A stretch of DNA of 64,000 nucleotides from Candidatus Saccharimonadia bacterium (GTDB taxonomy: Bacteria > Patescibacteriota > Saccharimonadia > UBA4664 > SCTI01), in assembly GCA_046597065.1 (NCBI GenBank), contig JBKJLI010000003.1, positions 2,807 to 66,806 of the forward strand, written 5' to 3'. The position numbers and the translations under genes were made by a program. Positions within the stretch are counted from its first letter, which is position 1, and the number at the start of each line of letters is the position of its first letter. Under the pieces are notes generated by a model. It worked only from the letters and a program-made list of their open reading frames with translations. It searched no databases and was not told where the DNA came from. This document shows, piece after piece, positions 33,539 through 60,410 of the stretch.

Positions 33539-34051
33539 CTAGCTAAGATCAAGTTTTCTTAGGTCATCGAAGCGATTCAATTGCACCGGAATCATATTGT
33601 CCGGCAGTTCATCTGACTTAAACCATCCGTACTCTGCCGTTTCATCATCTAATACGTCATTATGTTCAACTGGTCGTGCCAGAAAGCTTACAACCCAGCG
33701 ATGCTCACTATGCTTATCACCCGGAAAGCTATCTAAGTAAACGCCCAGTACCCGGCCCAACTCCACCGTCCAGCCGGTTTCCTCTTTGGTTTCCCTAATC
33801 GCGGTTGCGGCGGGCTTTTCGCCGTAGTCAGAGAATCCACCCGGTAGTGCCCAAGTTCCCTTCATCGGATCAATTGCCCTTTTTACTAACAACACCTCCC
33901 CTTTTTCATTTAATGTCAGGGTTTCGGCGCTGGCCGCATTCCTAACTAGCGGCCAAAGTATGCCATGAGTTTTACAGGTGGGCAATTGGTTATTGTAATC
34001 AAATTGGTCACCACATATATAGCACCTTTGAGGTATAGTTTTTTTGCTCAT
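33539..34051 (-). CDS. NUDIX hydrolase with N-terminal Cys4 zinc-ribbon, possibly a GDP-sugar hydrolase
   Basis: Nudix box GGFSDYGEKPAATAIRETKEETGW (G.5E.7REUxEExGU). N-terminal CxxC...CxxH ribbon. Start overlaps the manC stop, which is consistent with the gmm/wcaH role in GDP-fucose loci. Confidence 0.7.
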   Translation of the reverse strand: MSKKTIPQRCYICGDQFDYNNQLPTCKTHGILWPLVRNAASAETLTLNEKGEVLLVKRAIDPMKGTWALPGGFSDYGEKPAATAIRETKEETGWTVELGRVLGVYLDSFPGDKHSEHRWVVSFLARPVEHNDVLDDETAEYGWFKSDELPDNMIPVQLNRFDDLRKLDLS

Positions 34052-35175
34052 AATGAGAGTCCGTTTTTTTGCACTCGCCCAGACAGCTTCTTAGCCGCCT
34101 CGCCCACTAGCTGAGACTGCTCCTTGGCGCAAACCAACAATCCATCTGGTGTATCAACTACAATTACGCCCGATAGACCAATCACTACTACCGGCTTACC
34201 CTGGCTCATCACCATCACGTCATCGCTATCAATTAACTGCACGTCACCCTTAATGGTGTTGTTTTTGGAGTCACTCATCACATTATGCAAATCAAAAAAT
34301 GATCCAATATCAGCCCAGTCAAAACTACCGCTGACAACCATTAAATCCGGCACTTTTTCCATTAAGGCTGTATCAATTTGCTGACTGGGCAATGCTAAAT
34401 ATGACTGCTCCAGCTTTTTACCTTTAATAATGGCATCTTCGAGCGACTCATATCCCAGCATTAAGTCTTTTGCATGCTCCTTCATTTTAGCGAGAAACAC
34501 CGATCGAGGGGCGGCGAACAAACCCAAATTCCACAGGTAATTTCCGTCTTTCAAGTAGCCCTCGGCAACCGTTTGTGAGGGCTTTTCAACAAACTTCACT
34601 ACGTTGGAAACCGACATGCCTCCGCTTTGCTCCAACTCATCGGCCAGCTCCATATACCCAAACCCAGTGGCCGGATAAGTTGGTTTAATGCCAATTAGCG
34701 TTATGCGTTTGTGCTTAGTCGAGGTATTTCCAGCTACTTTTACCGTTTTAGCAAAGGCCGTTTCATCAGAAATGTGATGATCGGCGTGTAAAAACACCAC
34801 CGGTTCATCGTCGGGTTCAATAGTTTGCATATGTGCCATAGCGAGCAAAATGCAAGATGCCGTTCCGCGACGACCAGGTTCAACAATAATGTGTTTGGCA
34901 TCTAGATATGGAAGCTGTTCTGCTACTTCATTAGAATGCGACCGCTCGGTTATCACGTATATCTTACTTGTAACCAAACAAGCTCGCTTGTAGGTGTTCT
35001 GAAGCAGCGAACTTTGGCCGGTTAGTTTAAGTAAGTGTTTGGGATGGTTGCCTTGTGAAAGCGGCCACAGTCGCGTACCTGATCCTCCAGCGATAATTAC
35101 GATAATCATTTCTTGATTATACACGCCTATTTTTGTATAATCGTAAGCAGTTAGGGGCAAACAAATTGGCCGCAA
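34048..35175 (-). CDS. manC: Mannose-1-phosphate guanylyltransferase (GDP-mannose pyrophosphorylase)
   Basis: The track ORF start is 35175. The probable biological start is the internal ATG at ~35109 (MIIVIIAGGSGTRLWPLS...). Nucleotidyltransferase motif IIAGGSGTRLWPLS...PKHLL. A TATAAT box lies 8 nt upstream of that ATG. Confidence 0.8.
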   Translation of the reverse strand: MRPICLPLTAYDYTKIGVYNQEMIIVIIAGGSGTRLWPLSQGNHPKHLLKLTGQSSLLQNTYKRACLVTSKIYVITERSHSNEVAEQLPYLDAKHIIVEPGRRGTASCILLAMAHMQTIEPDDEPVVFLHADHHISDETAFAKTVKVAGNTSTKHKRITLIGIKPTYPATGFGYMELADELEQSGGMSVSNVVKFVEKPSQTVAEGYLKDGNYLWNLGLFAAPRSVFLAKMKEHAKDLMLGYESLEDAIIKGKKLEQSYLALPSQQIDTALMEKVPDLMVVSGSFDWADIGSFFDLHNVMSDSKNNTIKGDVQLIDSDDVMVMSQGKPVVVIGLSGVIVVDTPDGLLVCAKEQSQLVGEAAKKLSGRVQKNGLSL

Positions 35176-35717
35176 AAATATACAAAAACAAAACAGTTTT
35201 AATCACCCTCGTCGTCATCGCAGTCATAGCGATGGGGGCGGCCGTTTACGTTTATATTAAAATGCACCAAGAATCCGATTCTACTCCGGTAAATAAAAAC
35301 CTTGGTCAAGAAACCACTCAAACCAAGCAAAATGCCGGGCCGGCAACCGACAAAACCATTAACAATGGCTCGTCTACTGCGCCCGTGCCAAACCCTAGCC
35401 ATCCGGTAAGCAGCTTAGCCAAGCCAATAGGCCCCAACAATAATACCGGTACAGTAAGCCTATCCGGTGCCACCGGCATGGAGTCGGTTTGTCGTTCGGT
35501 ATCTGGGGCCAGCTGCTATATTCAAGCCAGTAAAGATGGAAAAACGATTAAGGTCTCAGTGGCCAAAACGGTTGGCAGCGATACAGCTAGTGACGGAGTC
35601 ATACTAGATTGGGATGCCAACCAGTTAACTGTCGGAACATGGATCATCCAGGCTGTAGCTAGTAAGGATGGCCAAACCGCCAGCTCTGATCCTCAAACAC
35701 TTAGGGTTAATTCATGA
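35133..35717 (+). CDS. Membrane-anchored S/T/N/P-rich protein with C-terminal Ig-like domain (hypothetical)
   Basis: The start is uncertain: TTG at ~35166 behind an AGGGG RBS, or an upstream codon. It has an N-terminal TM (VLITLVVIAVIAMGAAVYVY), then a low-complexity linker and an ~80-aa beta-rich C-terminal domain with a Cys pair. The stop overlaps the next gene's start. Confidence 0.45.
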   Translation: MYNRKQLGANKLAAKIYKNKTVLITLVVIAVIAMGAAVYVYIKMHQESDSTPVNKNLGQETTQTKQNAGPATDKTINNGSSTAPVPNPSHPVSSLAKPIGPNNNTGTVSLSGATGMESVCRSVSGASCYIQASKDGKTIKVSVAKTVGSDTASDGVILDWDANQLTVGTWIIQAVASKDGQTASSDPQTLRVNS

Positions 35718-38008
35718 AGCATTTATTAAAACTCCCCCTCTTACTTCTTGCCATCGCTTTCACCAGCATCATAAGTGCTGGCTCTGCACATGCTTATAGT
35801 AACTCTCGACTAATGGACGATGTTATTTTTGATAACTCTAATAGTATGAGTGAGAGTCAGATCCAAACCTTCCTAGCTGGAAAGGGGCCATGCTTAGCTA
35901 ATTACAGCGATGTTGACCCAAATTGGAATGGCACCACCTGGAGCTATACGGGTAGCGTGTCGGCCGCACATATTATCTACAAAGCTAGCCAACAATGGGG
36001 CCTTAATCCTCAAGTGATTATTTCGACCCTGCAAAAAGAAGAGAGTCTGATTACCGGCACCAGCTGCGACGCCTGGCGCTACAACTCAGCCATGGGATAC
36101 GGCTGTCCCGATTCCGGCGGCTGCAACGCCAAATACGCCGGCTTTACCCGCCAGGTACTGTGGGGCGCTTGGCAGTTAAAGTTTAATAAAGAACGCGCCT
36201 ACGGTAATACCGCCTGGGACGGCGACGGCGATATTGTCTATGTTGGCCTAATGACCGCCGGCGATCGGCGCCGCTGCACGACCTGCTCGCTGGTTAGCTA
36301 CGATGGCAACGCAACCATAGACGGCCAAGTTATCCATATGGACAATGGCACCACCGCCTCGCTATACACCTACACTCCCCACCTCGGCCAGTCATTCCCG
36401 GGGATATTTGAAGGCTGGTTTGGGAGTGTGCTTGTGCCAACGTATTCATGGCAGCTTGTTGATCAAAGAGTTAAAATTTATGGCACCAATACCGATTTTG
36501 ACCCCACTCCAGGTATTACTGCTGGCGACAGGTTCGTTATTTACTTCAAAGCTCTTAATACTGGTACGGCCACTTGGAGTAATAGCGGTCCCAGCCCTAC
36601 CAGGGCTGGGACTTCACAGCCCTATGATAGAACCAGCGTATTCTGTGAAGTATCTTGGATAAGTTGCAGTCGACCGGTGCAAATGCAAGAAGCCACCGTT
36701 TCCCCCGGCCAAACCGGTACCTTTATGTTCGCGGCCCAGGCTCCAGCCACGCCGGGTACATATAACGAGCGCTTTAATCTTTTGGCGGAGGGAGTCTCCT
36801 GGATGAGCGACATTGGGTTGTATTATCATCTCAAGGTCAACCCGGCTGATTTTAAATACTCACTTGTCAGCGATACGCTTCCTACGCAATTAGCTTCTGG
36901 GTCTAGTGGATCTGGAGCCGTTACTTTGCGCAATGACAGTAACTTCACTTGGTACAATGCACCTAAATTCCCAATCCGAATAGGGGCAACTTCGCCAAAT
37001 GATCGGGTTTCGGCTTTCCGAGACTCGTCATGGATAGGCTCGACGCGCCTGGCAAATCAAGCTGAGTTCTCGGTAGCGCCTGGCCAACAAGCGACATTCA
37101 CCGCCACCCTACATGCTCCTCAGGCTGCCGGTACCTACAATGAATCTCTTGGCCTGGTTGCCGATGGCATTGCCTGGGCCGGCCAATCCTTCAATCACCC
37201 CGTCACAGTAAAGCAAAACTATGATGCCAGCCTAGACTCAACATCAACGTCGATAATCTCCATGGGTGGAGCCGAACGTAAGCTGGTCACCCTTAAATAC
37301 TTAAACACTGGGCTGCTGACTTGGTCCAATGCAGGCGCAAACCCTGTTCGCATTAGTACCAGCTCACCAAGTGATAGAAGTAGTGGATTTTGCTATCAAA
37401 GTTGGATCGCCTGCCATCGACCCACCCAATTACTCGAAAGCTCGGTTGCACCGGGCCAAACCGGTACTTTTCAGTTTTATGTTGAGGGTCGTCCATGGTT
37501 TAATTCAAATCCATACTTTGAGAGCTTTGGCCCCATAGCAGAGGGTTTGGTAAGATTTGGAGCTGTGGCCCAAGTTCGAGTAAACTACACTCACCAGTCA
37601 TACTCGTGGAGTTTGACCGATCAATACGCACATACAGTTGGGCCCGGCCCAACACCTGTAGACATGGCTACCATGAGCCCTGGCCAGACCATCATTATCG
37701 GTTTTAAGGCTAGAAATACGGGTAGTGCTACCTGGCTCAATGACGGTGGTTTCCCGCTCAGAGTTGCAACATCGCGACCGACTGACAGATCAAGCGCCTT
37801 CTGTTCAAATACGTGGATCGCCTGCCATCGTCCGGCACAAATGCTCGAGGCCTCTGTGGCACCAAATCAGATTGGTACTTTTGAGTTTGAGTTTAAGGCT
37901 CCGACCGGCAGTCCGGGGCTACATAGTGAATATTTTGTACCAATCATCGAAAGCTACTCTTACCTAAGCGATATAGGCCTATATTATCGGACGAATGTCT
38001 CTCCATAG
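35714..38008 (+). CDS. Large secreted protein: signal peptide, N-terminal lysozyme/lytic-transglycosylase-like domain, and four tandem ~120-aa beta-sandwich-like repeats
   Basis: Signal peptide MKHLLKLPLLLLAIAFTSIISAGSAHA. N-domain has ASQQWGLNPQVIISTLQKEES, resembling the SLT consensus (A...G..P..L.AIA.qES). The same block recurs in the CHAP protein at 62413..63606. Each of four repeats carries NTG.ATWSN...DR.S.F...WI.C.RP.Q..E..V.PGQ.GTF.F...P...GTYNE.F.L.AEG. Confidence 0.65.
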   Translation: MKHLLKLPLLLLAIAFTSIISAGSAHAYSNSRLMDDVIFDNSNSMSESQIQTFLAGKGPCLANYSDVDPNWNGTTWSYTGSVSAAHIIYKASQQWGLNPQVIISTLQKEESLITGTSCDAWRYNSAMGYGCPDSGGCNAKYAGFTRQVLWGAWQLKFNKERAYGNTAWDGDGDIVYVGLMTAGDRRRCTTCSLVSYDGNATIDGQVIHMDNGTTASLYTYTPHLGQSFPGIFEGWFGSVLVPTYSWQLVDQRVKIYGTNTDFDPTPGITAGDRFVIYFKALNTGTATWSNSGPSPTRAGTSQPYDRTSVFCEVSWISCSRPVQMQEATVSPGQTGTFMFAAQAPATPGTYNERFNLLAEGVSWMSDIGLYYHLKVNPADFKYSLVSDTLPTQLASGSSGSGAVTLRNDSNFTWYNAPKFPIRIGATSPNDRVSAFRDSSWIGSTRLANQAEFSVAPGQQATFTATLHAPQAAGTYNESLGLVADGIAWAGQSFNHPVTVKQNYDASLDSTSTSIISMGGAERKLVTLKYLNTGLLTWSNAGANPVRISTSSPSDRSSGFCYQSWIACHRPTQLLESSVAPGQTGTFQFYVEGRPWFNSNPYFESFGPIAEGLVRFGAVAQVRVNYTHQSYSWSLTDQYAHTVGPGPTPVDMATMSPGQTIIIGFKARNTGSATWLNDGGFPLRVATSRPTDRSSAFCSNTWIACHRPAQMLEASVAPNQIGTFEFEFKAPTGSPGLHSEYFVPIIESYSYLSDIGLYYRTNVSP
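36440..38005 (+). repeat. Four tandem in-frame ~360-390 nt coding repeats (protein-level domain repeats) within the 764-aa secreted protein
   Basis: Repeats begin near residues 243, 372, 498 and 618. Conserved anchor residues are listed in the CDS entry. Nucleotide identity is low and the repeats are diverged. Confidence 0.6.
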
Positions 38009-38056
38009 CACTTAGGACATTTTACTGCTGAGCTGGTTTTTGGTAGAATCCCTGAT

Positions 38057-39010
38057 ATGTCGATCCCATCCCCAGTGTTTTGGAATAAGAAAAAAGTGCT
38101 TGTTACCGGCGGTAGCGGGTTTCTTGGCTCACGCTTGGTCGCTGAGTTGAATAAGCTTGGAGCCAATGTCTTCGCCCCGAGCCACAGCGAGTTCGATCTA
38201 GTGCATGAAGATCAAATTAAAAAAATGTACGCCAAATACCCCGAAATTGATACCGTTATTCATTTGGCGGCTGTTGTCGGTGGTATTGGCGCTAATCGGG
38301 AGCACCCCGGGTCGTTTATGTACGACAATCTCATGATGGGCACCCAGCTATTACATCAAGCTTATGTCAATAATATCCCCAAGTTTGTTGCTCTAGGAAC
38401 CGTTTGTGCTTACCCAAAACACACACCGGTACCCTTTAAAGAAGATGACCTCTGGAACGGCTACCCAGAAGAGACTAATGCTCCATACGGCCTGGCGAAA
38501 AAAATGATGCTTGTCCAAAGCCAGGGTTACCGAGAAGAGTATGGATATAACTCCATATTTCTGTTGCCGGTAAATCTTTATGGTCCTGGAGACAATTTTA
38601 ACCCGTCTAGCTCGCATGTTATACCTGCCTTAATCAAGAAGTGTGTTGATGCCGTTGAAAATAATCAAGACGAGATTGAGGTTTGGGGTGACGGATCAGC
38701 CAGTCGTGAATTTCTATACGTTGATGATGCCGTACGCGGCATAATTCTTTCAGCTGAGAAATATAATAAAAGTGAGCCAGTAAACCTTGGATCTGCCTTT
38801 GAACTAACTATTAAGCAGTTAGTGGATATTATCACTAGGGAAACTGGGTTTAAGGGAAAGGTTGTTTGGGATACTTCAAAGCCAAATGGACAACCTAGAC
38901 GTAAACTCGATGTATCTCGCGCCAAGAATGAGTTCGGTTTTCTCTCAAAGATCAGCTTCGACGAGGGCTTGAGCAAGACGATTGATTGGTACAAAAGGCA
39001 CCAGAGTTGA
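38057..39010 (+). CDS. fcl: GDP-L-fucose synthase (GDP-4-keto-6-deoxy-D-mannose 3,5-epimerase/4-reductase)
   Basis: Rossmann motif [10 protein letters not shown], catalytic Y..K (APYGLAKK), and blocks [53 protein letters not shown] closely matching Fcl. An extended -10 (TGGTAGAAT) lies upstream. Confidence 0.85.
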
Positions 39011-43304: not shown

Positions 43305-43306
43305 AT

Positions 43307-48019: not shown

Positions 48020-49155
48020 GAGTCGCGATTGAAGCGAGTATACTGACGCGCGACCTTAAAACCGGCACGTACCATTATTTGCGCAATCTACTGGAACCAC
48101 TAAGCACCCATGGTGGTGGCAATACTTACTCCCTGTTCTACTTTAGGACTAGACACGCCCTTGAGCTTGGAGCGGCTACTGGAAAGTTTAAGTCACATCT
48201 CATATGGTGGTTCCCAAGAAGATTATATAACTTGCTTTTGCGTACGCCCTTTGCCCCGCCAATCGACCTATTGGCTGGGATAAAAGCTGATGTTTATATA
48301 TTTCCAGCATTTGTTAGATGGCCGCTGCTTTGGAACCAGAAGTCCATTGTTATCATCTACGACCTTAGTTTTATTACTTCTCAAAAAACTCAGCTGTCCT
48401 GGTTTAACTGGTATCTTAACCGGGCGGTTCCAAAATCCGTCAAGAAAGCCACCAGGGTTATAACTATATCTAAAAATAGTGAGCGAGAAATAATTGAGAA
48501 TCTGGGTGTAGACCCAACAAAAATTAGTGTGATAACTCCGGCAGTCGATCATGGAGTATATCGACCAGCAACCAGTCCAGAGGTCGCCGCGGTTAAGCAA
48601 AAATATGGTATTAAGAGTAAATACATTCTGTTTCTAGGGACCCTCGAACCGAGAAAAAATGTGACCGGTATCATTGAAGCGTATCGCTTGCTACGCCCTG
48701 AAATAAAGAAGCAGTACCAGCTGGTGTTGGCGGGTGGAAAGGGTTGGCTCGATGGAACGATACTTGATTTAATCAATCAGCTGCCTCGTGAGCAGGTTGT
48801 GAAAACCGATTACGTTGAAGAGGCAGACGTACCGGCACTATACTCGGGGAGCTCTGTGTTTGTTTATCCCTCACTTTACGAAGGCTGGGGGATGCAAGTA
48901 CTTGAGGCCATGGCGTGCGGGGTGCCAGTGGTTACGGCAAATAACTCCTCGCTACCTGAGGTTGCCAGTGACGCCGCTATCTTAGTTGAAGCAACAGACA
49001 CCTTGGCAATTTCCAAAGCAATCAATAAAGTCATAACTGACCCCGCCCTAGCAGCAGCTATGCGAGCAAAGGGTATTGCCCACGCCAAAAAGTTTACCTG
49101 GGAGGATAGCGCAGAAAAACTAAAAGCGGTTATAGAGCAAGTCGACAAGCAGTAA
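48016..49155 (+). CDS. GT4-family glycosyltransferase
   Basis: YPSLYEGWGMQVLEAMACGVPVVTANNSSLPEVASDAA (EX7E). Confidence 0.8.
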   Translation: MRVAIEASILTRDLKTGTYHYLRNLLEPLSTHGGGNTYSLFYFRTRHALELGAATGKFKSHLIWWFPRRLYNLLLRTPFAPPIDLLAGIKADVYIFPAFVRWPLLWNQKSIVIIYDLSFITSQKTQLSWFNWYLNRAVPKSVKKATRVITISKNSEREIIENLGVDPTKISVITPAVDHGVYRPATSPEVAAVKQKYGIKSKYILFLGTLEPRKNVTGIIEAYRLLRPEIKKQYQLVLAGGKGWLDGTILDLINQLPREQVVKTDYVEEADVPALYSGSSVFVYPSLYEGWGMQVLEAMACGVPVVTANNSSLPEVASDAAILVEATDTLAISKAINKVITDPALAAAMRAKGIAHAKKFTWEDSAEKLKAVIEQVDKQ

Positions 49156-50148
49156 CTATCGGCGCTGCTTGGCGCCCTCAATCTCTAGATCATTTTTAAC
49201 CATCCTTGAGATTAACTGCTGAAAATTAACTTCCGGCTTCCAACCTAACTGTTTGTTAGCCTTGGCTGGATCGGCCAAGAGCATGTCGACTTCGGCCGGG
49301 CGCATAAAACGTTTGTCTTGTACCACATAAGGTTTCCAGTCCTTGATGCCCGCCTCCGCGAAGGCTACATCGAGTAGCTCTTTGATTGAGTGAGTTTCGC
49401 CCGTGCCGAGCACATAATCATCTGGTTTGTCTTGCTGCATCATCATCCACATACCGCGCACATAGTCCCCTGCAAAGCCCCAGTCCCGCTTAGCATCTAG
49501 GTTGCCCATAACAAGCTTGTCTTGCAAACCCAGCTTGATTCTGGCCACGCTGCTAGTCACTTTCCGGGTCACGAACTCATAACCTCGCCGCGGAGACTCG
49601 TGGTTGAATAGGATGCCGCAAGAGGCATGTATACCGTAACTCTCTCGGTAGTTTATGGTCATAAAATGACCATAAAGCTTGGCCGCACCATACGGGCTTC
49701 TGGGATAAAAAGGAGTTTTCTCGCTTTGAGCGTGGTTTTGGACTCCTCCGAACATCTCGCTGGTAGATGCTTGGTAGAAACGAATGTTACCCTTTCCGCC
49801 ATCAAATATCCGTACGGCCTCTAAGATCCTCGTTACCCCCAAGCCACTAATGTTGCCGGTAATCTCGGGCTGATCAAATGACAGCTTAACGAAACTAATT
49901 GCCCCTAAGTTATAGACTTCATCGGGCTGAGATTCTTCAAAAGCTCTCAATATTGAGCCCATATCAGTCAGATCGCCCTCAATTAGCCTAACGCCGGGGA
50001 TCTCGCGCTCAACTTCTGAACGCTTGGGGTTATGCTGGCCACGTATTAGGCCATAAACTTCGTAGTTCTTACTTAGTAGTAGCTCGGCTAAGTACATGCC
50101 GTCTTGACCAGTGATTCCGGTTACTAGTGCGCGCTTTGGGTTACTCAT
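49156..50148 (-). CDS. gmd: GDP-mannose 4,6-dehydratase
   Basis: ALVTGITGQDGMYLAELLL (Rossmann + GxTGQDG), YGAAKLYGHFMTINYRESYG (Y..K catalytic), 330 aa. This is the only minus-strand gene inside the glycan locus. Confidence 0.9.
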   Translation of the reverse strand: MSNPKRALVTGITGQDGMYLAELLLSKNYEVYGLIRGQHNPKRSEVEREIPGVRLIEGDLTDMGSILRAFEESQPDEVYNLGAISFVKLSFDQPEITGNISGLGVTRILEAVRIFDGGKGNIRFYQASTSEMFGGVQNHAQSEKTPFYPRSPYGAAKLYGHFMTINYRESYGIHASCGILFNHESPRRGYEFVTRKVTSSVARIKLGLQDKLVMGNLDAKRDWGFAGDYVRGMWMMMQQDKPDDYVLGTGETHSIKELLDVAFAEAGIKDWKPYVVQDKRFMRPAEVDMLLADPAKANKQLGWKPEVNFQQLISRMVKNDLEIEGAKQRR

Positions 50149-50200
50149 AAATATCCTTTTCTACTGATTGCCGTAATGGTATTTATGATACCATTACCCT

Positions 50201-51511
50201 GTGAGATTTATTAAACAAATCTGGCCTTTTTTATTGCTCGCCAGCCTTCCGTTTGAGCGTATTCCATCGTATGACCTAGCTATTTTGGGGCATAGCGTTA
50301 CAGTTAGGTCGGGCTTGATCATTGGCGTTGTTGGCATTGCTCTTTTCGGCTGGATAACCGCTAAGAATCTAAAACTGAATTTCAAGGAACCCGAAACCTG
50401 GCTGGTAAGCTATCTGGTCGTGGCGCTACTGTCTATTTTATTCACCCTCAATCTTCCACGTTCGCTAATTGCGGCCACCGCCACACTGATTGTCTTAGGC
50501 ACGTCCCTTGTTGTGGCGCAGGTTTTCGAAAAAGTGGCATTGGAAAAAGTTTATATAACCCTGTTCATAGCGAGTGTCGTAGTCTCGATCATTGGTCTCT
50601 ACCAATTCTTTGGCGATGCTTTTGGATTGCCCAGAAGCCTTACCGGTCTACGCGAAATATACACTAAGCAGGTATTCGGGTTCCCTCGAGTTCAGTCGGT
50701 TAGCCTGGAGCCACTATTTTTTGCTAACTTCTTGATTATTCCTATACTACTAACTGTAGGCCTGCTCTACACAAAAAAAATTAGCGGCCCTAAGTACTGG
50801 CTCGGCCTGTTTCTGTTCACTTTAACCCTTGGCCTGACGCTATCACGCGGAGGCTACTGGGCAACTGCAGGCGGACTTATAATCGTCGTTGTGGCACTCC
50901 GGAAACTCGGATCGTTAAAACGCGTTGCGGCACTATCGGCCACCATGCTGCTTGGTGTCGCCTCGGCGGTCTTAATGATTTACGTCACCGCTCAAATTAC
51001 AGGTGGTGGTAACAAGGGCGATGCTGCAGTTAGTAACTATGTGCATCAATCGAAGAAAGTCAGCTCGGCTCAAAGTGCCGATTCCGATCGAGTGGTTAAT
51101 CGCAAACTGGCTCTGGAGGCTTTTGCCGAACGCCCAGTAATCGGTAATGGGCTGGGAGCATTTGGCACCTACGCCCAGCGCAATGACCCGGTGTTTTACG
51201 CGTCTACTGATGCCGCGACTGTAAACAACGAATATCTCGAGATTTTGGCCGAAACTGGGTTACTCGGCTTTATTTCTCTGGCAGGCTTCGTAATCACATT
51301 GATGATTTCGGGCATCAATGCATTAAATAAAACTACGGACACTAACGTAAAAGCATGGATAGGATCGTTACTGGCTATCTGCGTCGCTTTTGGCATTCAA
51401 TACAACTCATTTTCCACGCTCTACATTATGCAAATATGGGTGATGATTGGAATCTTAATGGCCTTAGTTGCAAATGCAAATTCGTCGAACAGCTCAAAAT
51501 CTAAAGCCTAA
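50201..51511 (+). CDS. Wzy_C-family protein (O-antigen ligase / polymerase / O-oligosaccharyltransferase-like), about 11 TM
   Basis: Polytopic. TLGLTLSRGGYWA sits in a large external loop and resembles the Wzy_C signature shared by WaaL and PglL/PilO. Start is uncertain. Confidence 0.5.
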   Translation: MRFIKQIWPFLLLASLPFERIPSYDLAILGHSVTVRSGLIIGVVGIALFGWITAKNLKLNFKEPETWLVSYLVVALLSILFTLNLPRSLIAATATLIVLGTSLVVAQVFEKVALEKVYITLFIASVVVSIIGLYQFFGDAFGLPRSLTGLREIYTKQVFGFPRVQSVSLEPLFFANFLIIPILLTVGLLYTKKISGPKYWLGLFLFTLTLGLTLSRGGYWATAGGLIIVVVALRKLGSLKRVAALSATMLLGVASAVLMIYVTAQITGGGNKGDAAVSNYVHQSKKVSSAQSADSDRVVNRKLALEAFAERPVIGNGLGAFGTYAQRNDPVFYASTDAATVNNEYLEILAETGLLGFISLAGFVITLMISGINALNKTTDTNVKAWIGSLLAICVAFGIQYNSFSTLYIMQIWVMIGILMALVANANSSNSSKSKA

Positions 51512-53009
51512 AAGCTTATTGCTCCTACTTAAGCGTGTGCGCACTGAATGGCAACAACGCGTATATTTTGATTACTTATTTTTAGCAATAATCTGTCTAT
51601 CTGCGGTCGCTCTCAATATAGTTTGGAGAAATATTGAAACCAGGCCGCCGCACTGGGATATGGCAAGACACCTCTGGACCAGCTTGCAATACTTTAATAA
51701 CTGGTCAAACCATAGTATTAATGCGCTACTCAACCAGTATTTTTATTACCCTCCCCTAATCTATTGGGTCAGCATCCCAGTCTACTTAATCTTTGGTGCA
51801 TCGGTTAGCTCTGCCGTTTTAGTAAGTAACCTGTTCTTACCAATACTAGTATTTTCAACTTACGGGATAGGCCGCAGACTTTGGGGTCGGCTTGTCGGGC
51901 TATCTTCGGCTATTGTTGTAATGTCTTATCCAATTGTCACCAGCCAGTTCAAGGAATACCAGTTAGATGCGCCGCTAATGGCTATGGTTGCGCTGGCCGT
52001 TCTAGCTTTAATTCTAGCTCGTGAGTTTTCAATTAAGTGGATGAGTATGGCATTTGGGGTCGTATTTGGGTTGGGGATGCTAACGAAGTGGACCTTCATT
52101 GTAGCCATAGCCGCTCCACTGGCAATGGCATTAATAATAATGTCTTTGCGGGTCTATAAAACTCGAAACTATAGACCCCTCCAATATGTTTTTGTGGCGG
52201 GATTAATCGCCTATACTATAGCCAGTATCTGGTACCTGCCCAACCAAGTGCAGTTGAGGATCGATATGAGCAGCAACGGGGTGGCTCAAGCTCTCGCAGA
52301 GGGCGACCCAATACCTGGATCTTTTAATGCATATAGCTGGTACGCGGCTACACTGCTTAACGTACAAGTCTATCTGCTGCCAATACTACTGTTCTTTGTC
52401 GGCATTACCCAGAGCATCGCCCACAGAAAATCCTTCACTATCAATAAGTACCTATGGGCGACATTGATTGGATGCTATATTGGTTTTTCCTACCTTCCCA
52501 ATAAGGATGCTCGTTATACTATGGTGCTTTTGCCCGCCCTGGCAGTGCTTTCGGTTTATTGGATTCATTATTTGAAAAACCGGATAAAGTTGACGGCTGC
52601 CATGGCCATCATGCTAGTAAGTTTACTTATGTACTTCACTTTCAGCTTCGGCCTGCCCTTGGCACCGAAGCAAATTAGTTTAAATCGCCCAAATGTAACG
52701 CTGTTTGCCCAGCACGGATATATTATCGGCGCACCAACTAACGAGCTATGGCATCAAGAGGAAATATTTAAGTCTGTTGCCGGTAAAAGTTTGTCTATAA
52801 ATTACTCGGGACCGGAATCAATCTGGTTTAACAATTGGGGCATAGCATACTACTCAAACCTTTACCATGTGGCGCTGGTGTCTGACTCCCGAAAGGCTGA
52901 TCGCGTTGCTATCAGATCTAGCTCAACGGTTGTTGCGCCCGACGGTTTTCTAGAAAAACATATCTATTGCCTGCCAGATGGCACCAATCTATATATTTAT
53001 CAGAAATAG
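51468..53009 (+). CDS. GT-C fold membrane glycosyltransferase (ArnT/PMT-like, GT39/GT83-type)
   Basis: 12-13 TM. The first external loop has RPPHWDMARHLW and YYPPLIYW, typical of ArnT/PMT-like GT-C enzymes. Start is uncertain. Confidence 0.45.
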   Translation: MQMQIRRTAQNLKPKSLLLLLKRVRTEWQQRVYFDYLFLAIICLSAVALNIVWRNIETRPPHWDMARHLWTSLQYFNNWSNHSINALLNQYFYYPPLIYWVSIPVYLIFGASVSSAVLVSNLFLPILVFSTYGIGRRLWGRLVGLSSAIVVMSYPIVTSQFKEYQLDAPLMAMVALAVLALILAREFSIKWMSMAFGVVFGLGMLTKWTFIVAIAAPLAMALIIMSLRVYKTRNYRPLQYVFVAGLIAYTIASIWYLPNQVQLRIDMSSNGVAQALAEGDPIPGSFNAYSWYAATLLNVQVYLLPILLFFVGITQSIAHRKSFTINKYLWATLIGCYIGFSYLPNKDARYTMVLLPALAVLSVYWIHYLKNRIKLTAAMAIMLVSLLMYFTFSFGLPLAPKQISLNRPNVTLFAQHGYIIGAPTNELWHQEEIFKSVAGKSLSINYSGPESIWFNNWGIAYYSNLYHVALVSDSRKADRVAIRSSSTVVAPDGFLEKHIYCLPDGTNLYIYQK

Positions 53010-53033
53010 CTGTTCAGCCCTATAATAGTCTCT

Positions 53034-54143
53034 ATGAAAATCATTATTGATGGCCGGATGATTGGCTGGACCGGAATTGGCCGCTACTCCATCGAACTGT
53101 TAAACCACCTCCAAGAGATAGACCAAGATAACGAGTACGTTGTGCTGGTTCGTAGCGTTGACTGGGATAAGTGGCAGCCAATCAGCTCTAATTTTAATCG
53201 CGTACGCTGCGACATTGAGCCTTACAGTTTAGCCGAGCAGCTTAAGCTGCCCTGGCAAATCCGCAAGCTACGGCCAGACATTGTGCATTTTTTAAGCATT
53301 AACTCCCCTATTATCGGGCACTTCCGACGGGTTACTACGGTGCATGACCTAACACTTATCGATTATGACGTTGCCCGTGGGTCGTGGATTAAGCAACAAG
53401 TTTACGGCTTAAAGCGATTGGTGCTGCGGATTCACGTTAATCTAGTTCTTAGGCGTTCTCGGCGAGTGATAGCTGATACCGAGTTTGGGCGGCAGAATTT
53501 AGTTAAGAGAAATTTGATTCGACCCAACAACGGCCACGCCATTCATTTGGGCGCCGGTATCGCGACGAATAACCTTATCAAACCTTCCCCCTATCCCCCA
53601 CTAATAAACCAAAGGTTTATCCTGGCTGTCGGCAATGCATTCCCCTACAAAAACCTCCAACGACTCATTGATGCTTATGCCCTGGCTCGGCCTAGGGAAA
53701 CCAAACTAGTGCTAGTTGGTAAGCCTGACTATTTTTATGAGCAGCTACAAACTTACGTAAAAAACAATAAAATTGTTGGGGTTCACTTTGCCGGCTTTGT
53801 GCCCGATACTCAGCTAGCCTGGCTATATCAACAAACTAGCTTATATGTTTTTCCTAGCCTCAGTGAAGGCTTTGGGCTACCGGGCTTAGAGGCCATGGCC
53901 TACGGCGCGCCGGTCGCTAGCAGCAACGCCACTTGTTTGCCTGAAGTCTACGGTGAGGCCGCTGCCTACTTTGATCCGAACGACACCGTCGACATCGCCC
54001 GGGTCATCACCGAGTTGCTGAATGACGCCAAGCTCAGCTCCAAGTTAATAAAAGCTGGGCACGAGCAGGTCGCCAAGTACTCCTGGGAGCGCATGGCCCA
54101 CCAAACCCTTGAGGTTTATAATCGAGCGCCGGGGGCAGAATAA
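53034..54143 (+). CDS. GT4-family glycosyltransferase
   Basis: FPSLSEGFGLPGLEAMAYGAPVASSNATCLPEVYGEAA (EX7E). Confidence 0.8.
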   Translation: MKIIIDGRMIGWTGIGRYSIELLNHLQEIDQDNEYVVLVRSVDWDKWQPISSNFNRVRCDIEPYSLAEQLKLPWQIRKLRPDIVHFLSINSPIIGHFRRVTTVHDLTLIDYDVARGSWIKQQVYGLKRLVLRIHVNLVLRRSRRVIADTEFGRQNLVKRNLIRPNNGHAIHLGAGIATNNLIKPSPYPPLINQRFILAVGNAFPYKNLQRLIDAYALARPRETKLVLVGKPDYFYEQLQTYVKNNKIVGVHFAGFVPDTQLAWLYQQTSLYVFPSLSEGFGLPGLEAMAYGAPVASSNATCLPEVYGEAAAYFDPNDTVDIARVITELLNDAKLSSKLIKAGHEQVAKYSWERMAHQTLEVYNRAPGAE

Positions 54144-54151
54144 GTAATTCA

Positions 54152-55561
54152 ATGTATATGAATTTGCTTAGATTCAGAAAGCTACTTGCCCAGAAAAAAT
54201 ACTGGGTTATTGTGCTTATTGCAGTCCTAACTATCTCAATGGGGGCACGGTTTAATATAAAAATGGGACTTTCGGGTGACGAGCCGCACTACCTAGTTAT
54301 GGCAAATAGCCTCAAAGTCGATCATGATCTGAATGTAAAAAATGATTACGGGCAAAAAAGATACTTGCCGTACTACCCCGACACATTAGAGCCGCACATA
54401 AATTGGGCTCTGGTACAACAGTCCGGCGAACGTTGGCATTCAATACACGGGCCAGGTTTACCTCTACTAATTCTGCCCGGGGTCGTTTTTAGCAAGCGGC
54501 TTGGGGCACTCTTGATAATGATTGGCTTCGGATTGCTTGCAGTTGTTGCCGGTATATCTATTTCAAAACTAGTAGCAAGCAAAGGGGCTTCTTTTTTAGC
54601 CGGGCTGATGTTGGCATTAAGTGTTCCATTCCTCGCTCTAGCTGGCTATATCTTCCCAGATATAGTGATCGGATCGTTAACTGCATTAACATTTTTGCTA
54701 ATTAACATGAAATCCAAAACTCTTTGGCGAGATGTGGCGATTGGGGTATTATCGGCAACACTCATTTGGGTGCACGTCAAAACCAGTCTAGTTGCGGGAT
54801 CTCTCATTTTAATTGCAGTTTGGTACATTATTGAAAGTTCTAAGGATCTTACCAATCGCAATCGCAGGCTGGCAGCATTACTTGTGCCTTTCATTCTTTT
54901 GACCGGCCTACTTCAATTCAAGTTTTACCAATGGTTCGGTGTGTTCACTCCAAATGGTATCTATAAGGGTAACAATCAGCTATTTCAGCTGAATCCGTTC
55001 AAGTCACTCTTAGCAATACTATTCGATCCATTTAAGGGTCTGCTAATAATGAGTCCTATATGGTTTTGTGCCGTCGTGGGTTTGCCAGAATGGTATAAGC
55101 GAAATAAGAAGCAATTGTTATTTGTATTAGCAATAGTATTGCCGAGTTTTTTCATTCAATCTACTTTTGACGATTGGGCCGGAGGATGGAGCCCGCCAGC
55201 ACGATATACCGTTCAATATTTACCAATCCTGCTGCCAGCACTCGCGCTTGGCCTGGAGCTAATGCTGAGTAACGCAAAGATGCGGATCTACGCATTTACC
55301 CTCATTGTGGCACAAGTTACTATCGCCGCGACCTATATATTATTCAGGACTCCATGGGACTTCGCTGGTCACGAAGCTCCGTTTATTGTTGATTTGAAAG
55401 ACTCATTACATTTGAATTGGCTACCTACAATATTTTTCGACAACCATGCAAACCCTACAAAAGCTGGGATTGTAGTTATTTTAAGTAGCTTTTTCGTGAT
55501 GACTGCTTTATTAATTTTTAAAAAGTTTAGTCAATCAAGAAACAGCCGTAAAATAAGCTAA
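54152..55561 (+). CDS. Polytopic membrane protein, GT-C-like (candidate second lipid-linked-sugar transferase)
   Basis: About 12 TM. The first external loop has GLSGDEPHYLVMANSL (DE..Y motif as in ArnT/PMT/AftA-type GT-C). Confidence 0.4.
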   Translation: MYMNLLRFRKLLAQKKYWVIVLIAVLTISMGARFNIKMGLSGDEPHYLVMANSLKVDHDLNVKNDYGQKRYLPYYPDTLEPHINWALVQQSGERWHSIHGPGLPLLILPGVVFSKRLGALLIMIGFGLLAVVAGISISKLVASKGASFLAGLMLALSVPFLALAGYIFPDIVIGSLTALTFLLINMKSKTLWRDVAIGVLSATLIWVHVKTSLVAGSLILIAVWYIIESSKDLTNRNRRLAALLVPFILLTGLLQFKFYQWFGVFTPNGIYKGNNQLFQLNPFKSLLAILFDPFKGLLIMSPIWFCAVVGLPEWYKRNKKQLLFVLAIVLPSFFIQSTFDDWAGGWSPPARYTVQYLPILLPALALGLELMLSNAKMRIYAFTLIVAQVTIAATYILFRTPWDFAGHEAPFIVDLKDSLHLNWLPTIFFDNHANPTKAGIVVILSSFFVMTALLIFKKFSQSRNSRKIS

Positions 55562-56031
55562 CCCCGCTTCTTTACCACCAGCCGGCGTCTTTTATCCTCG
55601 CCCCGGCTCTCGGTGGTAACGTGCTCGTGATCGGTAAACAGTGAGTGAATCTGGCGGCGTTCGGCGGCGTTCATTTGCGGCAGCGGCACCTCATCTTCCT
55701 CACCATCGGCCACCTTACGAGCAGCTTCGTGGGCGCGTTCGGCAAGCCGTTCTAAGCGGCCCTGGCGGTAGCTTCCAACATCTATGCGTACATACACTCG
55801 TTCGGCGGTTAGGCGCCTGATCATCATGTTTAAAACGTGCTGAAGCGCCTCTAGAGTTTCACCCCTATGCCCAATTACGTGGGCTCCGTCTTCGCTTGCT
55901 ACTGCGAGCAAAATTGTGTCTTCGTCGCGGATTACAGTAGCCTCCGCATTAACCCCAAAAAAGGCCAGCAAGTCCTCAAACTGTTGCTTGGCCGCCGCCT
56001 CAACCGCACTTCCGGTTAACTGCTCCCTCAT
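55558..56031 (-). CDS. jag: KhpB/Jag-like RNA-binding protein (KH + R3H domains), minimal form
   Basis: KH-like GHRGETLEAL and R3H (LPQMNAAERRQIHSLFTDHEHVTTESRGE..RRLVV). Conserved position downstream of yidC. Confidence 0.65.
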   Translation of the reverse strand: MREQLTGSAVEAAAKQQFEDLLAFFGVNAEATVIRDEDTILLAVASEDGAHVIGHRGETLEALQHVLNMMIRRLTAERVYVRIDVGSYRQGRLERLAERAHEAARKVADGEEDEVPLPQMNAAERRQIHSLFTDHEHVTTESRGEDKRRRLVVKKRG

Positions 56032-56873
56032 TTGCGAGCTCGCTTGCCGCCCTTTTTGCGCGCCTTGGCCTTTTTAGCTGAAGCAACCGGTTCGCTAGAA
56101 GCCAGTGTGCGAGTGGTGATCTTGCTTACTCCGGTTTCACCAACCACCTCCATTTCGTGGGCATCGCGCAGTAGCACGTGGTACTGCTGATAAACCGCAA
56201 TCGCGCTGGTAACCGTCCAGTATAGGGCCAAAGCCGAGGGCAGCGTTAAGCCGATGCCAAAGGTTAATATTGGGAAAAGGTAAATGATGTTCTGCATCAT
56301 CCGGACCTGGGGGTCGGTAGAGGCGGCGGCACCCTTGGGCTGTAGCATCTTGCTTTGGTAAAACTGGGCGGCGGCGGCGGTTAGCGCCAAAAACCAGCTA
56401 GGCTGGGCCAGGTTAATCACCCCAAACAGCGTTGGTGAAAAGCTTCCCGGGTTGGCGATAACGTTGGCCACTTCGGGGATGCGCTCAACAAAGCCGTAGG
56501 TTAGCTTGGCAATCTGGTCACCATGCACGGCGTCGCTAAATACAATGTAGATGGCAAAAAAGATTGGCAGCTGAAATAACAGCGGTAAAATTGGGGCCAG
56601 CGGGCTGGTACCCTTTTCTTTATACAAATCCATCATCATCTGGGTTTCAAGCTGGCGATCACCACCGGCCTTGGCCTTCACCTTGGCAATTTCGGGGGCC
56701 AGCGCTTGCACCTTCTTTTGCGAGTGCAGTTGCCTAGTTACTAGCGGCCAAATGGCTAGCCGGACTAAAACGGTTAGCAAAATAACCGCCAGGCCAAGAT
56801 CATGACCAGGCAGCCATCCATAAATGGCAAACAGAATGTTAAATAATGGTTGAACAAAAATTACGGTAAACAT
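56028..56873 (-). CDS. yidC: Membrane protein insertase YidC (short, Gram-positive-type)
   Basis: 5 TM with a YidC/Oxa1 core. C-terminal Lys/Arg-rich tail (KKAKARKKGGKRARK). Sits in the rnpA-yidC-jag cluster. Confidence 0.85.
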   Translation of the reverse strand: MFTVIFVQPLFNILFAIYGWLPGHDLGLAVILLTVLVRLAIWPLVTRQLHSQKKVQALAPEIAKVKAKAGGDRQLETQMMMDLYKEKGTSPLAPILPLLFQLPIFFAIYIVFSDAVHGDQIAKLTYGFVERIPEVANVIANPGSFSPTLFGVINLAQPSWFLALTAAAAQFYQSKMLQPKGAAASTDPQVRMMQNIIYLFPILTFGIGLTLPSALALYWTVTSAIAVYQQYHVLLRDAHEMEVVGETGVSKITTRTLASSEPVASAKKAKARKKGGKRARK

Positions 56874-56887
56874 ATCTAAACCTGTCT

Positions 56888-57244
56888 CTACTTGGCTTTT
56901 GAGCCGTTAATTAAATCGGCCTTGGTTAACACCTCTACCACCAGCTTTTCCAGCTGGGCGGCGGTTTTGGCGCTAAGATCGGCGCGTACCGTCACTACTA
57001 TATCGTATCCGGGGGCGACTGTCTGCCACCCGCGTTGAGCCACTCCCACGATCTGTCGACGCAAACGGTTGCGAACGGTTGCGCGTTTAGACACCTTTTT
57101 ACTGACAATCACCACCAAACGGCTTTCGGCGTTGCCATTACGGGCCGATCGCACCAGCAGCTCTGGGTTTGATACTCCCCGACCCTGCTTAAAAACCCGC
57201 GAGATTTCGCGGGGTTTTTTTAAACGGTTGGGAGCTGGCAGCAC
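56888..57244 (-). CDS. rnpA: Ribonuclease P protein component
   Basis: 118 aa, basic. RNR-like motif region (VRNRLRRQI). Immediately downstream of rpmH. Confidence 0.8.
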   Translation of the reverse strand: MLPAPNRLKKPREISRVFKQGRGVSNPELLVRSARNGNAESRLVVIVSKKVSKRATVRNRLRRQIVGVAQRGWQTVAPGYDIVVTVRADLSAKTAAQLEKLVVEVLTKADLINGSKAK

Positions 57245-57253
57245 CAGAGCGCC

Positions 57254-57391
57254 TTAAATTGCGACGCGCGTTCGGCCCTTGGCCCGACGTCGTTGCAACA
57301 CGGCTCGGCCGGCGCGACTAGACATGCGCTTTAAAAAGCCATGGACGCGTTGGCGGCGGGTTTTCTTTGGCTGATACGTTCGCTTACTCAT
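57254..57391 (-). CDS. rpmH: 50S ribosomal protein L34
   Basis: 45 aa, [45 protein letters not shown]. Below the 60-aa ORF-track threshold but unmistakable. Confidence 0.9.
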
Positions 57392-60383: not shown

Positions 60384-60410
60384 CGGCTGCCGTTTAAATA
60401 AGATCAGACC

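Follow-up and report, generated by a model that had tools for sequence, protein, structure and literature searches.

In the slg clusters of Geobacillus stearothermophilus NRS 2004/3a and Paenibacillus alvei, the Wzy_C proteins WsaB and WsfB are the O-oligosaccharyltransferases (PMC2943079). A Wzy_C domain alone does not discriminate between such O-oligosaccharyltransferases and ligases (PMC12645811); in the ligase WaaL a His is the proposed catalytic base, and mutation of its counterpart in PglS gives an inactive enzyme (PMC12800693). A GT-C enzyme working with a lipid-linked donor is the signature of glycosylation that follows polymerisation, ABC-dependent pathways included (PMC11127046), and the three-component extracytoplasmic systems comprise GtrABC, Klebsiella O2 Gml, streptococcal GacL and Citrobacter ORF12/GT136 (PMC11127046, PMC8035078). 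For the ultrasmall Patescibacteria, an absence of the outer membrane has been proposed; no experimental data on any Patescibacterial member of these families were found in the literature, and the functional assignments made here are predictions from homology, predicted structure and synteny.

Within the 64 kb of DNA analysed (the window), positions 50201-55561 are filled by four co-directional, closely spaced ORFs. These form the end of a 20-kb glycan cluster that has a Wzm/Wzt ABC transporter, a GDP-fucose supply and three methyltransferases. The cluster adjoins jag-yidC-rnpA/dnaA, and its + strand genes run unbroken from 35133 to 49155 and then from 50201 to 55561, no gap exceeding about 50 nt. 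Family and fold assignments, synteny and residue conservation are what the analysis shows. The homologues are all from Patescibacteria and place the host in Saccharimonadia; given that this group is proposed to lack an outer membrane, the classical acceptor of WaaL, lipid A-core, is unlikely in this host. It is suggested, with slightly better than even confidence, that these four genes make up the extracytoplasmic end of a surface-glycan pathway dependent on an ABC transporter in a Saccharimonadia bacterium, comprising a ligase and GT-C decorators.

The preliminary description of this DNA had proposed a fucose-containing glycan, which is a reasonable reading of the sugar-supply genes. The GDP-mannose 4,6-dehydratase GMD (49156..50148, - strand; PF16363, E 3e-126) scores 423 bits with TIGR01472, above the cutoff of 415, and a GDP-L-fucose synthase-like SDR (38057..39010, +; Epimerase, PF01370) matches the Fcl model NF047922 over its full length at 288.6 bits, below the cutoff of 500. 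Adjoining them is the mannose-1-phosphate guanylyltransferase ManC (34048..35175, -; NTP_transferase and ManC beta-helix; TIGR01479, 255 bits), the source of GDP-mannose. Export is represented by a Wzm permease (38986-39828, +; ABC2_membrane, E 1.6e-17) and a Wzt ATPase (39825-41081, +; ABC_tran, E 2.8e-21) with a C-terminal Wzt_C glycan-binding domain (E 2.8e-9), with further matches to galactan/teichoic-acid exporter models. An FkbM methyltransferase (41050-41742, +), a fusion of a GNT-I-like glycosyltransferase with a methyltransferase (41739-43304, +) and a further methyltransferase (43307-43987, +), all assigned by Pfam and NCBIfam, are candidate chain-capping enzymes by analogy with the methyl cap added by WsaE (PMC2943079). 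Five cytoplasmic glycosyltransferases assigned by Pfam follow between 43953 and 49155 on the + strand, none with a TM segment: a GT2 (43953-44783), a GT1-like enzyme (44747-45970), a GT4 (45967-47103), a second GT2 (47096-48019) and a second GT4 (48016-49155), the last of which corresponds to a GT4 that directly precedes Wzy_C in 44 other loci. Another cytoplasmic GT4, here GT4c (53034..54143, +; Glycos_transf_1, E 6.9e-30, and Glyco_transf_4; no TM segment), lies between the two GT-C genes and was absent from the preliminary description. Among the partners of the Wzy_C gene it is the most conserved; it lies downstream of that gene, and its orthologues, at 40-50% identity, sit between Wzy_C and jag in Saccharimonadia loci.

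The donors, the acceptor and the order of the steps that we infer are as follows. Going by family assignment, ManC would supply GDP-mannose, which GMD and the Fcl-like enzyme would convert to GDP-L-fucose; GT2 and GT4 enzymes would extend the polymer on a polyprenyl-diphosphate carrier in the cytoplasm and the methyltransferases would cap it. On the model of E. coli O8/O9a and the Geobacillus slg cluster, Wzm/Wzt would export the polymer with Wzt_C reading the cap. The WaaL-fold Wzy_C protein would take the completed chain off its lipid carrier and transfer it en bloc to an acceptor other than lipid A-core. The two lineage-variable GT-C proteins would then add single sugars to the exported glycan or its acceptor, using polyprenyl-monophosphate sugars at the external face of the membrane as in systems of the Gtr/GacL type.

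The preliminary description had correctly recognised one Wzy_C protein and a pair of GT-C membrane transferases whose loops carry DE/HWD motifs (PF04932, PF13231, ETRPPHWD). The first of these (50201..51511, +) is a 436-aa membrane protein of the Wzy_C family and WaaL fold (PF04932, E 5.3e-16; 59.2 bits, cutoff 31.7). It is a candidate for the ligase that transfers the glycan en bloc, and its Asn-type clade occurs across Patescibacteria. Two invariant Arg align with the Und-PP-binding arginines, and the HN-x9-G motif is in the same register as in WaaL. Nevertheless, an Asn that is invariant in 120/120 homologues stands at the position aligned to the His of WaaL and of chain 9rmk (610 aa, entered in the PDB as 'Oligosaccharyltransferase'), and with Asn in place of His the chemistry of the protein may differ, or it may fall outside this type of transferase. 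The homologues share 35 invariant columns, and the extracytoplasmic motifs PFER, GFPRVQS and EPLFFANYL, in the outer loops, are unusually conserved across the whole superphylum, whereas WaaL sequences are usually far less conserved.

Given that PF04932 also includes polymerases and that the His of ligases and O-oligosaccharyltransferases is missing, the protein could instead be a Wzy-type repeat-unit polymerase or a SEDS-like glycan synthase, and a Wzx flippase does lie beside the gene in most Patescibacteria. This is the least probable of the alternatives, and very unlikely, for several reasons. Across 78 related loci, compared with 10-kb flanks, both locus types retain the Wzy_C orthologue: in 46 of the 78 it is accompanied by Wzx and by a second Wzy_C paralogue, and 20, like the window, have neither, although the exporter of these 20 Wzx-less loci would mostly fall outside the flank. 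A polymerase would be jobless in an ABC-dependent pathway, so retention without Wzx and without the second paralogue favours a ligase; a better candidate for the polymerase is the paralogue whose presence tracks that of Wzx. Furthermore, the fully scanned window carries an ABC exporter instead, with no Wzx/MOP family among the scanned ORFs of its 64 kb, and in structure the protein matches WaaL far better than it does FtsW or RodA.

Returning to the pathway of ligase and decorators, the accessory genes downstream behave as variable inserts. The first (51468..53009, +; probably starting at the ATG at 51474) encodes a PMT_2, ArnT-like membrane glycosyltransferase of GT-C_A type (PF13231, E 2.4e-12, 47.8 bits, cutoff 26.1) with a conserved ETRPPHWD motif in the first loop and a conserved YYPP motif, and the other (54152..55561, +) a second GT-C-fold membrane glycosyltransferase with an SGDEPHYL loop motif, from a family that has no Pfam model. 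Between the Wzy_C gene and the conserved GT4 there is a variable slot that may hold the PMT_2 gene, the second GT-C, a second Wzy_C-like ORF (loci L006 and L080) or nothing. The PMT_2 gene is found in L001, L004, L005, L007, L009, L079 and L083 and is missing from L002/L003, L012 and others; in L083 a small DPM1-like GT2 lies directly 3' of it. GT-C genes occur in 8/20 Wzx-less loci and in 2/58 of the others. GT-Cs that decorate a glycan would be expected to show such insertion at one position of an otherwise conserved locus, and the distribution fits decoration of the glycan after export. Within the window, no initiating phosphoglycosyltransferase was found, and neither a GtrA/SMR-type flippase nor a TM-bearing polyprenyl-phosphate-sugar synthase, so the three-component system is incomplete in cis.

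The preliminary description had instead read these proteins as a general O-glycosylation system, in which the Wzy_C protein is a PglL-like O-oligosaccharyltransferase and both GT-Cs are PMT-type enzymes that place sugars directly onto secreted proteins rich in Pro and Thr. The PMT_2 match, the DE/HWD first-loop motif, which PMTs share, the adjoining GDP-mannose supply and precomputed PF02366 matches in many homologues of the PMT_2 protein are consistent with this reading, which is nevertheless improbable. Among the Pfam models it had named, PF04932 and PF13231 match and PF02366 and PglL_A do not. The window PMT_2 protein itself has no Pfam match to PF02366 (PMT), PMT_4TMC or MIR, which leaves its membership of GT39 unsupported, and the sole PDB match of its profile, and thus its only relative by sequence with a solved structure, is ArnT (5ezm, E 7.2e-8). 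ArnT modifies lipid A; the PMT_2 protein was rejected as an ArnT since the host is probably without lipid A, its outer membrane being proposed absent. The second GT-C is about equally remote from ALG12, ArnT, AglB and Pmt4, and both genes are dispensable in close relatives and lie inside a glycan locus. Of the four substrates named as having long Pro/Thr/Ser-rich linkers, only the cyt-b5 protein (8742-9377) qualifies: in a scan of all 68 ORFs of the window it is the sole clear case (a PTS-rich stretch, 27 of 30 residues), and the substrate argument rests on this single protein. The 282-aa protein (5434-6282) has no such stretch in that scan, the partial ORF at 1-304 is rich in P/E/V/A instead, and the small membrane-anchored protein that begins the + strand run (35133..35717, +; one TM segment, no family match) is only mildly enriched in S/T/N/P. 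In summary, protein O-glycosylation by the Wzy_C protein is plausible, if unproven, given the WsaB/WsfB precedent, and by the GT-Cs is unsupported.

For the ligase, the nature of the acceptor has to be weighed. A conserved wall or lipid anchor, such as a secondary cell-wall polymer or lipoglycan, is put at a little short of even, and a secreted or surface protein, glycosylated in the manner of WsaB/WsfB, is the more tentative choice. The lean towards the former has two grounds: first, the high conservation of the outer-loop motifs; second, the conserved neighbours of Wzy_C across Patescibacteria, which are the peptidoglycan hydrolases SpoIID and Amidase_2 and not obvious glycoprotein substrates. 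The NBR1-like Ig domain of a secreted 764-aa protein that heads the glycan operon (35714..38008, +; signal peptide; N_BRCA1_IG, E 9e-17) recurs beside Wzy_C fused to SpoIID (28 other loci) and Amidase_2 (17 other loci). The repeated Ig (FW) domains of the 764-aa protein are visible in the translation, C-terminal to an unassigned region, and this protein may be a glycan binder or a glycan acceptor. In single-membrane bacteria, attachment to peptidoglycan or lipid is normally by LCP enzymes, and we know of no precedent there for a Wzy_C protein doing so.

The protein alternative takes its fullest form in O-glycosylation of S-layer or surface proteins of the Geobacillus/Paenibacillus type, which is considered rather unlikely. 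The Wzy_C protein would transfer the methyl-capped, ABC-exported glycan to Ser/Thr/Tyr and the GT-Cs would decorate that glycan, the candidate substrates being the 764-aa Ig-repeat protein, pilins and PT-linker proteins. The outer membrane is probably absent in the host, the window holds one genuine PT-linker protein, and several O-oligosaccharyltransferases have substrates encoded close by (PMC12645811). Against this, the Wzy_C protein has no Pfam match to PglL_A or Wzy_C_2, which mark PglL and PglS, or to TPR families and no large extracytoplasmic C-terminal domain, it has Asn where the catalytic His would align, its profile is nearer to WaaL (E 1e-13) than to 9rmk (E 5e-8), no pilin family occurs among the scanned ORFs, and it is wall hydrolases that neighbour it elsewhere.

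The predicted pathway resembles several known systems in part. With WaaL of Cupriavidus metallidurans (PDB 7TPG/7TPJ) the ligase shares the Wzy_C domain, the aligned arginines and the motif register, and the upstream Wzm/Wzt, Wzt_C and methyl capping are those of the E. coli O8/O9a-type ABC-dependent O-antigen pathway that ends in WaaL; the invariant Asn, the superphylum-wide motifs and the probable lack of lipid A-core set it apart. The PMT_2 protein shares with ArnT (GT83) and PMT (GT39) the GT-C_A fold, an acidic first-loop motif and presumably a polyprenyl-phosphate-sugar donor; the second GT-C differs in coming from a family that Pfam does not model. Like the three-component systems, the locus has strain-variable GT-C-fold enzymes in a glycan locus, a setting compatible with ABC-dependent backbones, and in L083 the DPM1-like GT2; unlike them, the cluster lacks the synthase and any GtrA/SMR/MATE flippase, and its two tandem GT-Cs are unrelated to each other. 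The slg clusters differ in using dTDP-rhamnose where GDP-fucose/mannose is predicted here, and the window holds two GT-C genes, the Asn-type Wzy_C protein and neither an initiating phosphoglycosyltransferase of WbaP type nor a TPR partner. Nevertheless, in cluster architecture the likeness to slg is extensive. In a single-membrane host, both clusters combine nucleotide-sugar genes with a fusion of methyltransferase and glycosyltransferase, and the gene of a large secreted protein lies adjacent. As in slg, the glycan is predicted here to be methyl-capped, completed on its lipid, exported by Wzm/Wzt and passed in the last step to a Wzy_C membrane protein. To our knowledge, S-layer protein O-glycosylation is the sole precedent for a Wzy_C protein in a methyl-capped Wzm/Wzt cluster of a single-membrane host.

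The interval 50201-55561 contains four ORFs, all in the same direction: a 436-residue Wzy_C protein (50201-51511; Pfam Wzy_C PF04932, E 5.3e-16, 59.2 bits against a cutoff of 31.7, residues 202-360), a PMT_2 protein (51468-53009; Pfam PMT_2 PF13231, E 2.4e-12, 47.8 bits against a cutoff of 26.1), a cytoplasmic GT4 enzyme (53034-54143; Glycos_transf_1, E 6.9e-30) that the preliminary description had omitted, and a second GT-C protein (54152-55561) that has no Pfam match and whose sole NCBIfam match scores 29 bits against a cutoff of 200. That description had counted one Wzy_C protein and two GT-C transferases with acidic loop motifs, and was correct in this according to the Pfam matches, the alignments and an AlphaFold model of the second GT-C; the PF04932 and PF13231 profiles it had named both match above their gathering scores. 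Promoter and terminator scans of 48000-57600 gave signals no better than shuffles, so operon boundaries cannot be drawn from them.

The Wzy_C protein is a member of the superfamily of that name, and its closest structural relative is WaaL. A profile of 37 homologues retrieved, from PDB sequences, WaaL of C. metallidurans (7tpg, E 1.1e-13) and 9rmk, a 610-residue 'Oligosaccharyltransferase' (E 4.8e-8). The AlphaFold model (pLDDT 89.8) predicts the multi-helix GT-C_B membrane fold, superimposable on WaaL, which is its best match (Foldseek E 2e-8, TM 0.61/0.65), with SEDS polymerases far behind. Two arginines, R216 (TLSRGG) and R297, are invariant in 120 of 120 homologues and align with arginines of 7tpg and 9rmk; as judged by alignment rather than by three-dimensional superposition of side chains, they would be the counterparts of those that hold the diphosphate of Und-PP in WaaL. 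The catalytic histidine of the WaaL motif (H-[NSQ]-x9-G-x-x-[GTY]) is absent: the aligned residue is N342, in VNNEYLEILAETG, in all 120 homologues, where 7tpg and 9rmk both carry HN. This histidine is the proposed catalytic base, and the H324A substitution inactivates PglS (PMC12800693). The Asn-type clade comprises at least 675 representative clusters (50% identity) at E<=1e-30, contained within 18,195 Wzy_C-like clusters at E<=1e-10.

The markers of two other classes of Wzy_C enzyme are lacking. O-oligosaccharyltransferases of the PglL/PglS type are marked by Wzy_C co-occurring with PglL_A and/or Wzy_C_2 and by a C-terminal periplasmic domain (PMC12645811). On the window protein, Wzy_C is the sole Pfam match at E<=0.01, neither PglL_A, a profile suggested in the preliminary description, nor Wzy_C_2 is matched, and the chain ends about 20 residues past the last TM helix. 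The pilin enzymes TfpO, PilO and TfpM are recognised by a gene adjoining that of the pilin substrate, and no pilin family was found among window ORFs of at least about 90 aa or among recurrent neighbours in 78 loci. NCBIfam assigned no family to either the Wzy_C or the PMT_2 protein.

Homologues of the Wzy_C protein all belong to Patescibacteria, either to Saccharimonadia or to other groups, including Kerfeld-, Berkel-, Nealson- and Parcubacteria. In Saccharimonadia the gene order Wzy_C, variable slot, GT4, jag, yidC, rnpA, dnaA is conserved, the slot holding PMT_2, the second GT-C type, a second Wzy_C-like ORF or nothing. Most other Patescibacteria share a cassette around the orthologue of the window protein (loci L015-L082; for example L075:11242-12534, L037:7364-8800, L071:4279-5760 and L032:12658-14571). 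When neighbours were clustered across 78 loci, the orthologue was found to be preceded by a SpoIID protein with an NBR1-like Ig domain (position -3, 28 loci), a Wzx-type MOP flippase (-2, 49 loci) and a GT4 (-1), and followed by a paralogous second Wzy_C (+1, 55 loci) and an Amidase_2 protein, also with an NBR1-like Ig domain (+2, 17 loci). The conserved MOP gene was considered as a possible MurJ and rejected, since it matches the Wzx-type profiles Polysacc_synt and Polysacc_synt_3. Wzx and the paralogue are present together in 46 of the 78 loci and both are missing from 20, 13 of which contain GMD, as does the window. The orthologue is thus present whichever polymerisation mode is used, whereas the paralogue goes with Wzx, a distribution that speaks for ligation, the final step common to both modes, as the role of the orthologue and for polymerisation as that of the paralogue. 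The one representative paralogue read, from L075:11242-12534, has DN at the motif equivalent to that around N342. In a separate database protein of 861 aa (P0375), a GT4 (residues 1-350) is fused to Wzy_C (431-856), which would tie the Wzy_C protein functionally to the GT4 encoded upstream of it; the fusion could also be an artefact of gene calling or of a frameshift.

Within the window, the four ORFs close a glycan cluster of about 20 kb. The cluster begins with ManC (34048-35175, minus strand) and a small anchored protein, followed by a secreted 764-aa protein with repeated NBR1-like Ig domains (35714-38008), which heads the glycan operon. An Fcl-like GDP-fucose synthase comes next, then Wzm and a Wzt carrying a Wzt_C domain, then an FkbM methyltransferase, a GT-methyltransferase fusion and a third methyltransferase, and then five cytoplasmic GT2/GT4 enzymes; GMD, on the minus strand, separates these from the final Wzy_C, PMT_2, GT4 and second GT-C genes. 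Pfam scans of the large ORFs of the 64 kb found no Wzx/MOP flippase, initiating phosphoglycosyltransferase, LCP protein or GtrA-type flippase. Given the presence of Wzm/Wzt and methyltransferases and the absence of Wzx, the pathway is an ABC-transporter-dependent one of fucose/mannose type, and its glycan is probably methyl-capped. It is within an otherwise ordinary ABC-type glycan locus that the Wzy_C protein is found, and both its sequence and its predicted structure suggest that it belongs to a WaaL-fold, His-less ligase clade of single-membrane bacteria. In a related locus, L083, a GT11 gene (alpha-1,2-fucosyltransferase family; L083:1485-2330) and two FkbM methyltransferase genes lie upstream of Wzy_C and PMT_2, which fits fucose-containing, methylated glycans in this lineage.

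Directly after the cluster lie jag, yidC and rnpA (minus strand), then dnaA, dnaN and recF (55558-61457), a region normally found at the replication origin. The adjacency of the glycan locus to these genes is conserved in Saccharimonadia (L001-L005, L009, L012, L013, L044 and L080). Elsewhere in the window, a phosphoketolase (XFP, 776 aa) adjoins acetate kinase (16691-20145), a compact ATP-yielding route from pentose or hexose phosphates, and 28532-29710 encodes a cyclopropane-fatty-acyl-phospholipid synthase (CMAS, E 2e-94) with an N-terminal DUF7884, which is notable given the general view that bacteria of this group rely on lipids from their hosts. Several window proteins of at least 300 aa have no family match (32389-33330, 20482-21435).

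The two GT-C proteins had been proposed to be PMT-type enzymes acting on secreted proteins rich in Pro, Thr and Ser, a proposal that is left without support. The PMT_2 protein matches the PMT_2 family only. GT39 PMTs carry PF02366 with PMT_4TMC, and MIR in eukaryotes, and none of the three is matched here, PF13231 being the only match at E<=0.01; its homologues show weak precomputed PF02366 matches, never PMT_4TMC. A profile of 32 homologues has ArnT as its sole PDB match (E 7.2e-8) and does not retrieve Pmt1, Pmt2 or Pmt4, and a single-sequence search of PDB sequences gave no match. The protein combines a profile match above the gathering score with an acidic residue in the first extracytoplasmic loop, as expected of a PMT_2/ArnT-like GT-C_A enzyme: D64 of HWD is invariant among its homologues and aligns with the loop-1 PDEGRY of ArnT, and its YYPP motif aligns with ArnT EKPP. 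A scan of all 68 ORFs for stretches of 30 residues of which 18 or more are P, T or S identified one protein, the cyt-b5 protein (8742-9377), with 27 of 30; of the other proposed substrates, the 282-aa protein has no such stretch and the remaining two are marginal. In public annotation the PMT_2 protein (P0231, 449 aa) begins at ATG 51660, past the ETRPPHWD motif and the first TM helix, and homologues support a start upstream, such as ATG 51474, which would overlap the end of the Wzy_C gene. As for the cyt-b5 protein, it is membrane-anchored, with its cytochrome b5 domain on a long PT-rich linker, and may form part of an extracytoplasmic redox module (8742-11851) with a ferric-reductase-like FAD/NAD membrane protein (9374-10690) and a DsbB/DsbA-like pair (10788-11851).

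No Pfam model covers the family of the second GT-C, none of whose 110 homologues (P0121-P0230) has a Pfam domain, and its profile gave no match in PDB sequences. An AlphaFold model built on the homologue alignment (pLDDT 84.9, pTM 0.88) matches GT-C enzymes strongly and about equally, and this predicted GT-C_A membrane fold is accompanied by an acidic first-loop motif, SGDEPHYL, which follows the first helix and hardly varies among the homologues. Outside Patescibacteria the family occurs in Vicinamibacteria, Chloroflexota and candidate division KSB3, many members being 550-800 aa long. Across the 78 loci, GT-C genes lie beside Wzy_C in 8 of the 20 without Wzx, against 2 of the 58 others, and in L083 a small DPM1-like GT2 gene directly follows PMT_2. 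Three-component extracytoplasmic glycosylation joins a GT-C to a polyprenyl-phosphate-sugar synthase and a small flippase; the window has the GT-Cs, and no GtrA, SMR or MATE gene was found within its 64 kb. The two GT2 proteins of the cluster were considered as the synthases and set aside, as both lack TM helices and neither gives a full-length match to a DPM1-like profile. Both GT-Cs appear to be accessory enzymes of a routine kind that decorate the glycan.

On the basis of homology, predicted structure and synteny, from which all functional assignments made here derive, it is suggested that the Wzy_C protein would move the exported lipid-diphosphate-linked polymer en bloc onto a non-LPS acceptor, and that the GT-Cs would use polyprenyl-monophosphate donors to add sugars at the outer face. 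Their accessory role is likened to that of three-component systems, which decorate both Wzx/Wzy- and ABC-made glycans (PMC11127046). Given that CPR bacteria have been proposed to have no outer membrane, lipid A-core is unlikely to be the acceptor. That the polymer is instead placed on a wall or lipid anchor has close to an even chance of being right: the outer-loop motifs of Wzy_C are unusually conserved across the whole superphylum, and its conserved neighbours are peptidoglycan hydrolases whose Ig-like domain is common to the 764-aa protein heading the operon, suggesting a wall-associated polymer bound by such domains. The NBR1-like Ig (FW) domain of the SpoIID and Amidase_2 neighbours is the same as the repeats of that protein, which has no match in PDB sequences, and the literature found for bacterial NBR1/FW domains dealt solely with autophagy in eukaryotes. 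Further envelope proteins of the window (30593-32341 and 61709-63606) are a VanW/PG_binding_4 protein, a Big_5 Ig-like protein and a CHAP-domain hydrolase.

Patescibacteria, which live attached to the cells of their hosts, represent much of bacterial diversity, and their envelope glycoconjugates are essentially undescribed. Literature searches combining Saccharibacteria or Patescibacteria with O-antigen ligase or glycosylation and S-layer returned nothing directly relevant; a Tn-seq study of Southlakia reports only that predicted EPS genes are important for growth (PMC10633639). A conserved WaaL-fold enzyme in cells that probably lack lipid A, with Asn at the His position, raises questions of both acceptor and catalytic base, and the gene is tractable now that natural-competence genetics exists for Saccharibacteria. 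A broader reading, tentative and rather unlikely, is that the Patescibacteria-wide His-less clade is a general ligase of Wzx/Wzy- or ABC-made surface glycans onto a non-LPS acceptor, which would be surface proteins or the wall, where the clade would replace LCP enzymes or act beside them; the NBR1-like Ig domains found in the 764-aa protein and in the neighbouring wall hydrolases would read or carry the glycan. If true, this would make the clade a novel type of glycan ligase, and the candidate phyla radiation would possess a conserved envelope module.

A protein acceptor, as the preliminary description had proposed, is a plausible one for the Wzy_C protein. For the GT-Cs it lacks support, no link specifically to protein acceptors having been found for either of them. 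A protein acceptor for the Wzy_C protein is somewhat doubtful on balance, and it draws on a striking likeness between the window cluster and the S-layer glycosylation clusters of Geobacillus and Paenibacillus. In the latter, a Wzy_C O-OTase (WsaB or WsfB) is encoded beside the S-layer gene together with Wzm/Wzt and WsaE, a fusion enzyme that adds the methyl cap (PMC2943079). In the window, as in the WsaB and WsfB systems, Wzy_C is encoded in a Wzm/Wzt cluster with methyltransferases, and the adjacent secreted 764-aa protein would be the putative counterpart of the structural glycoprotein.
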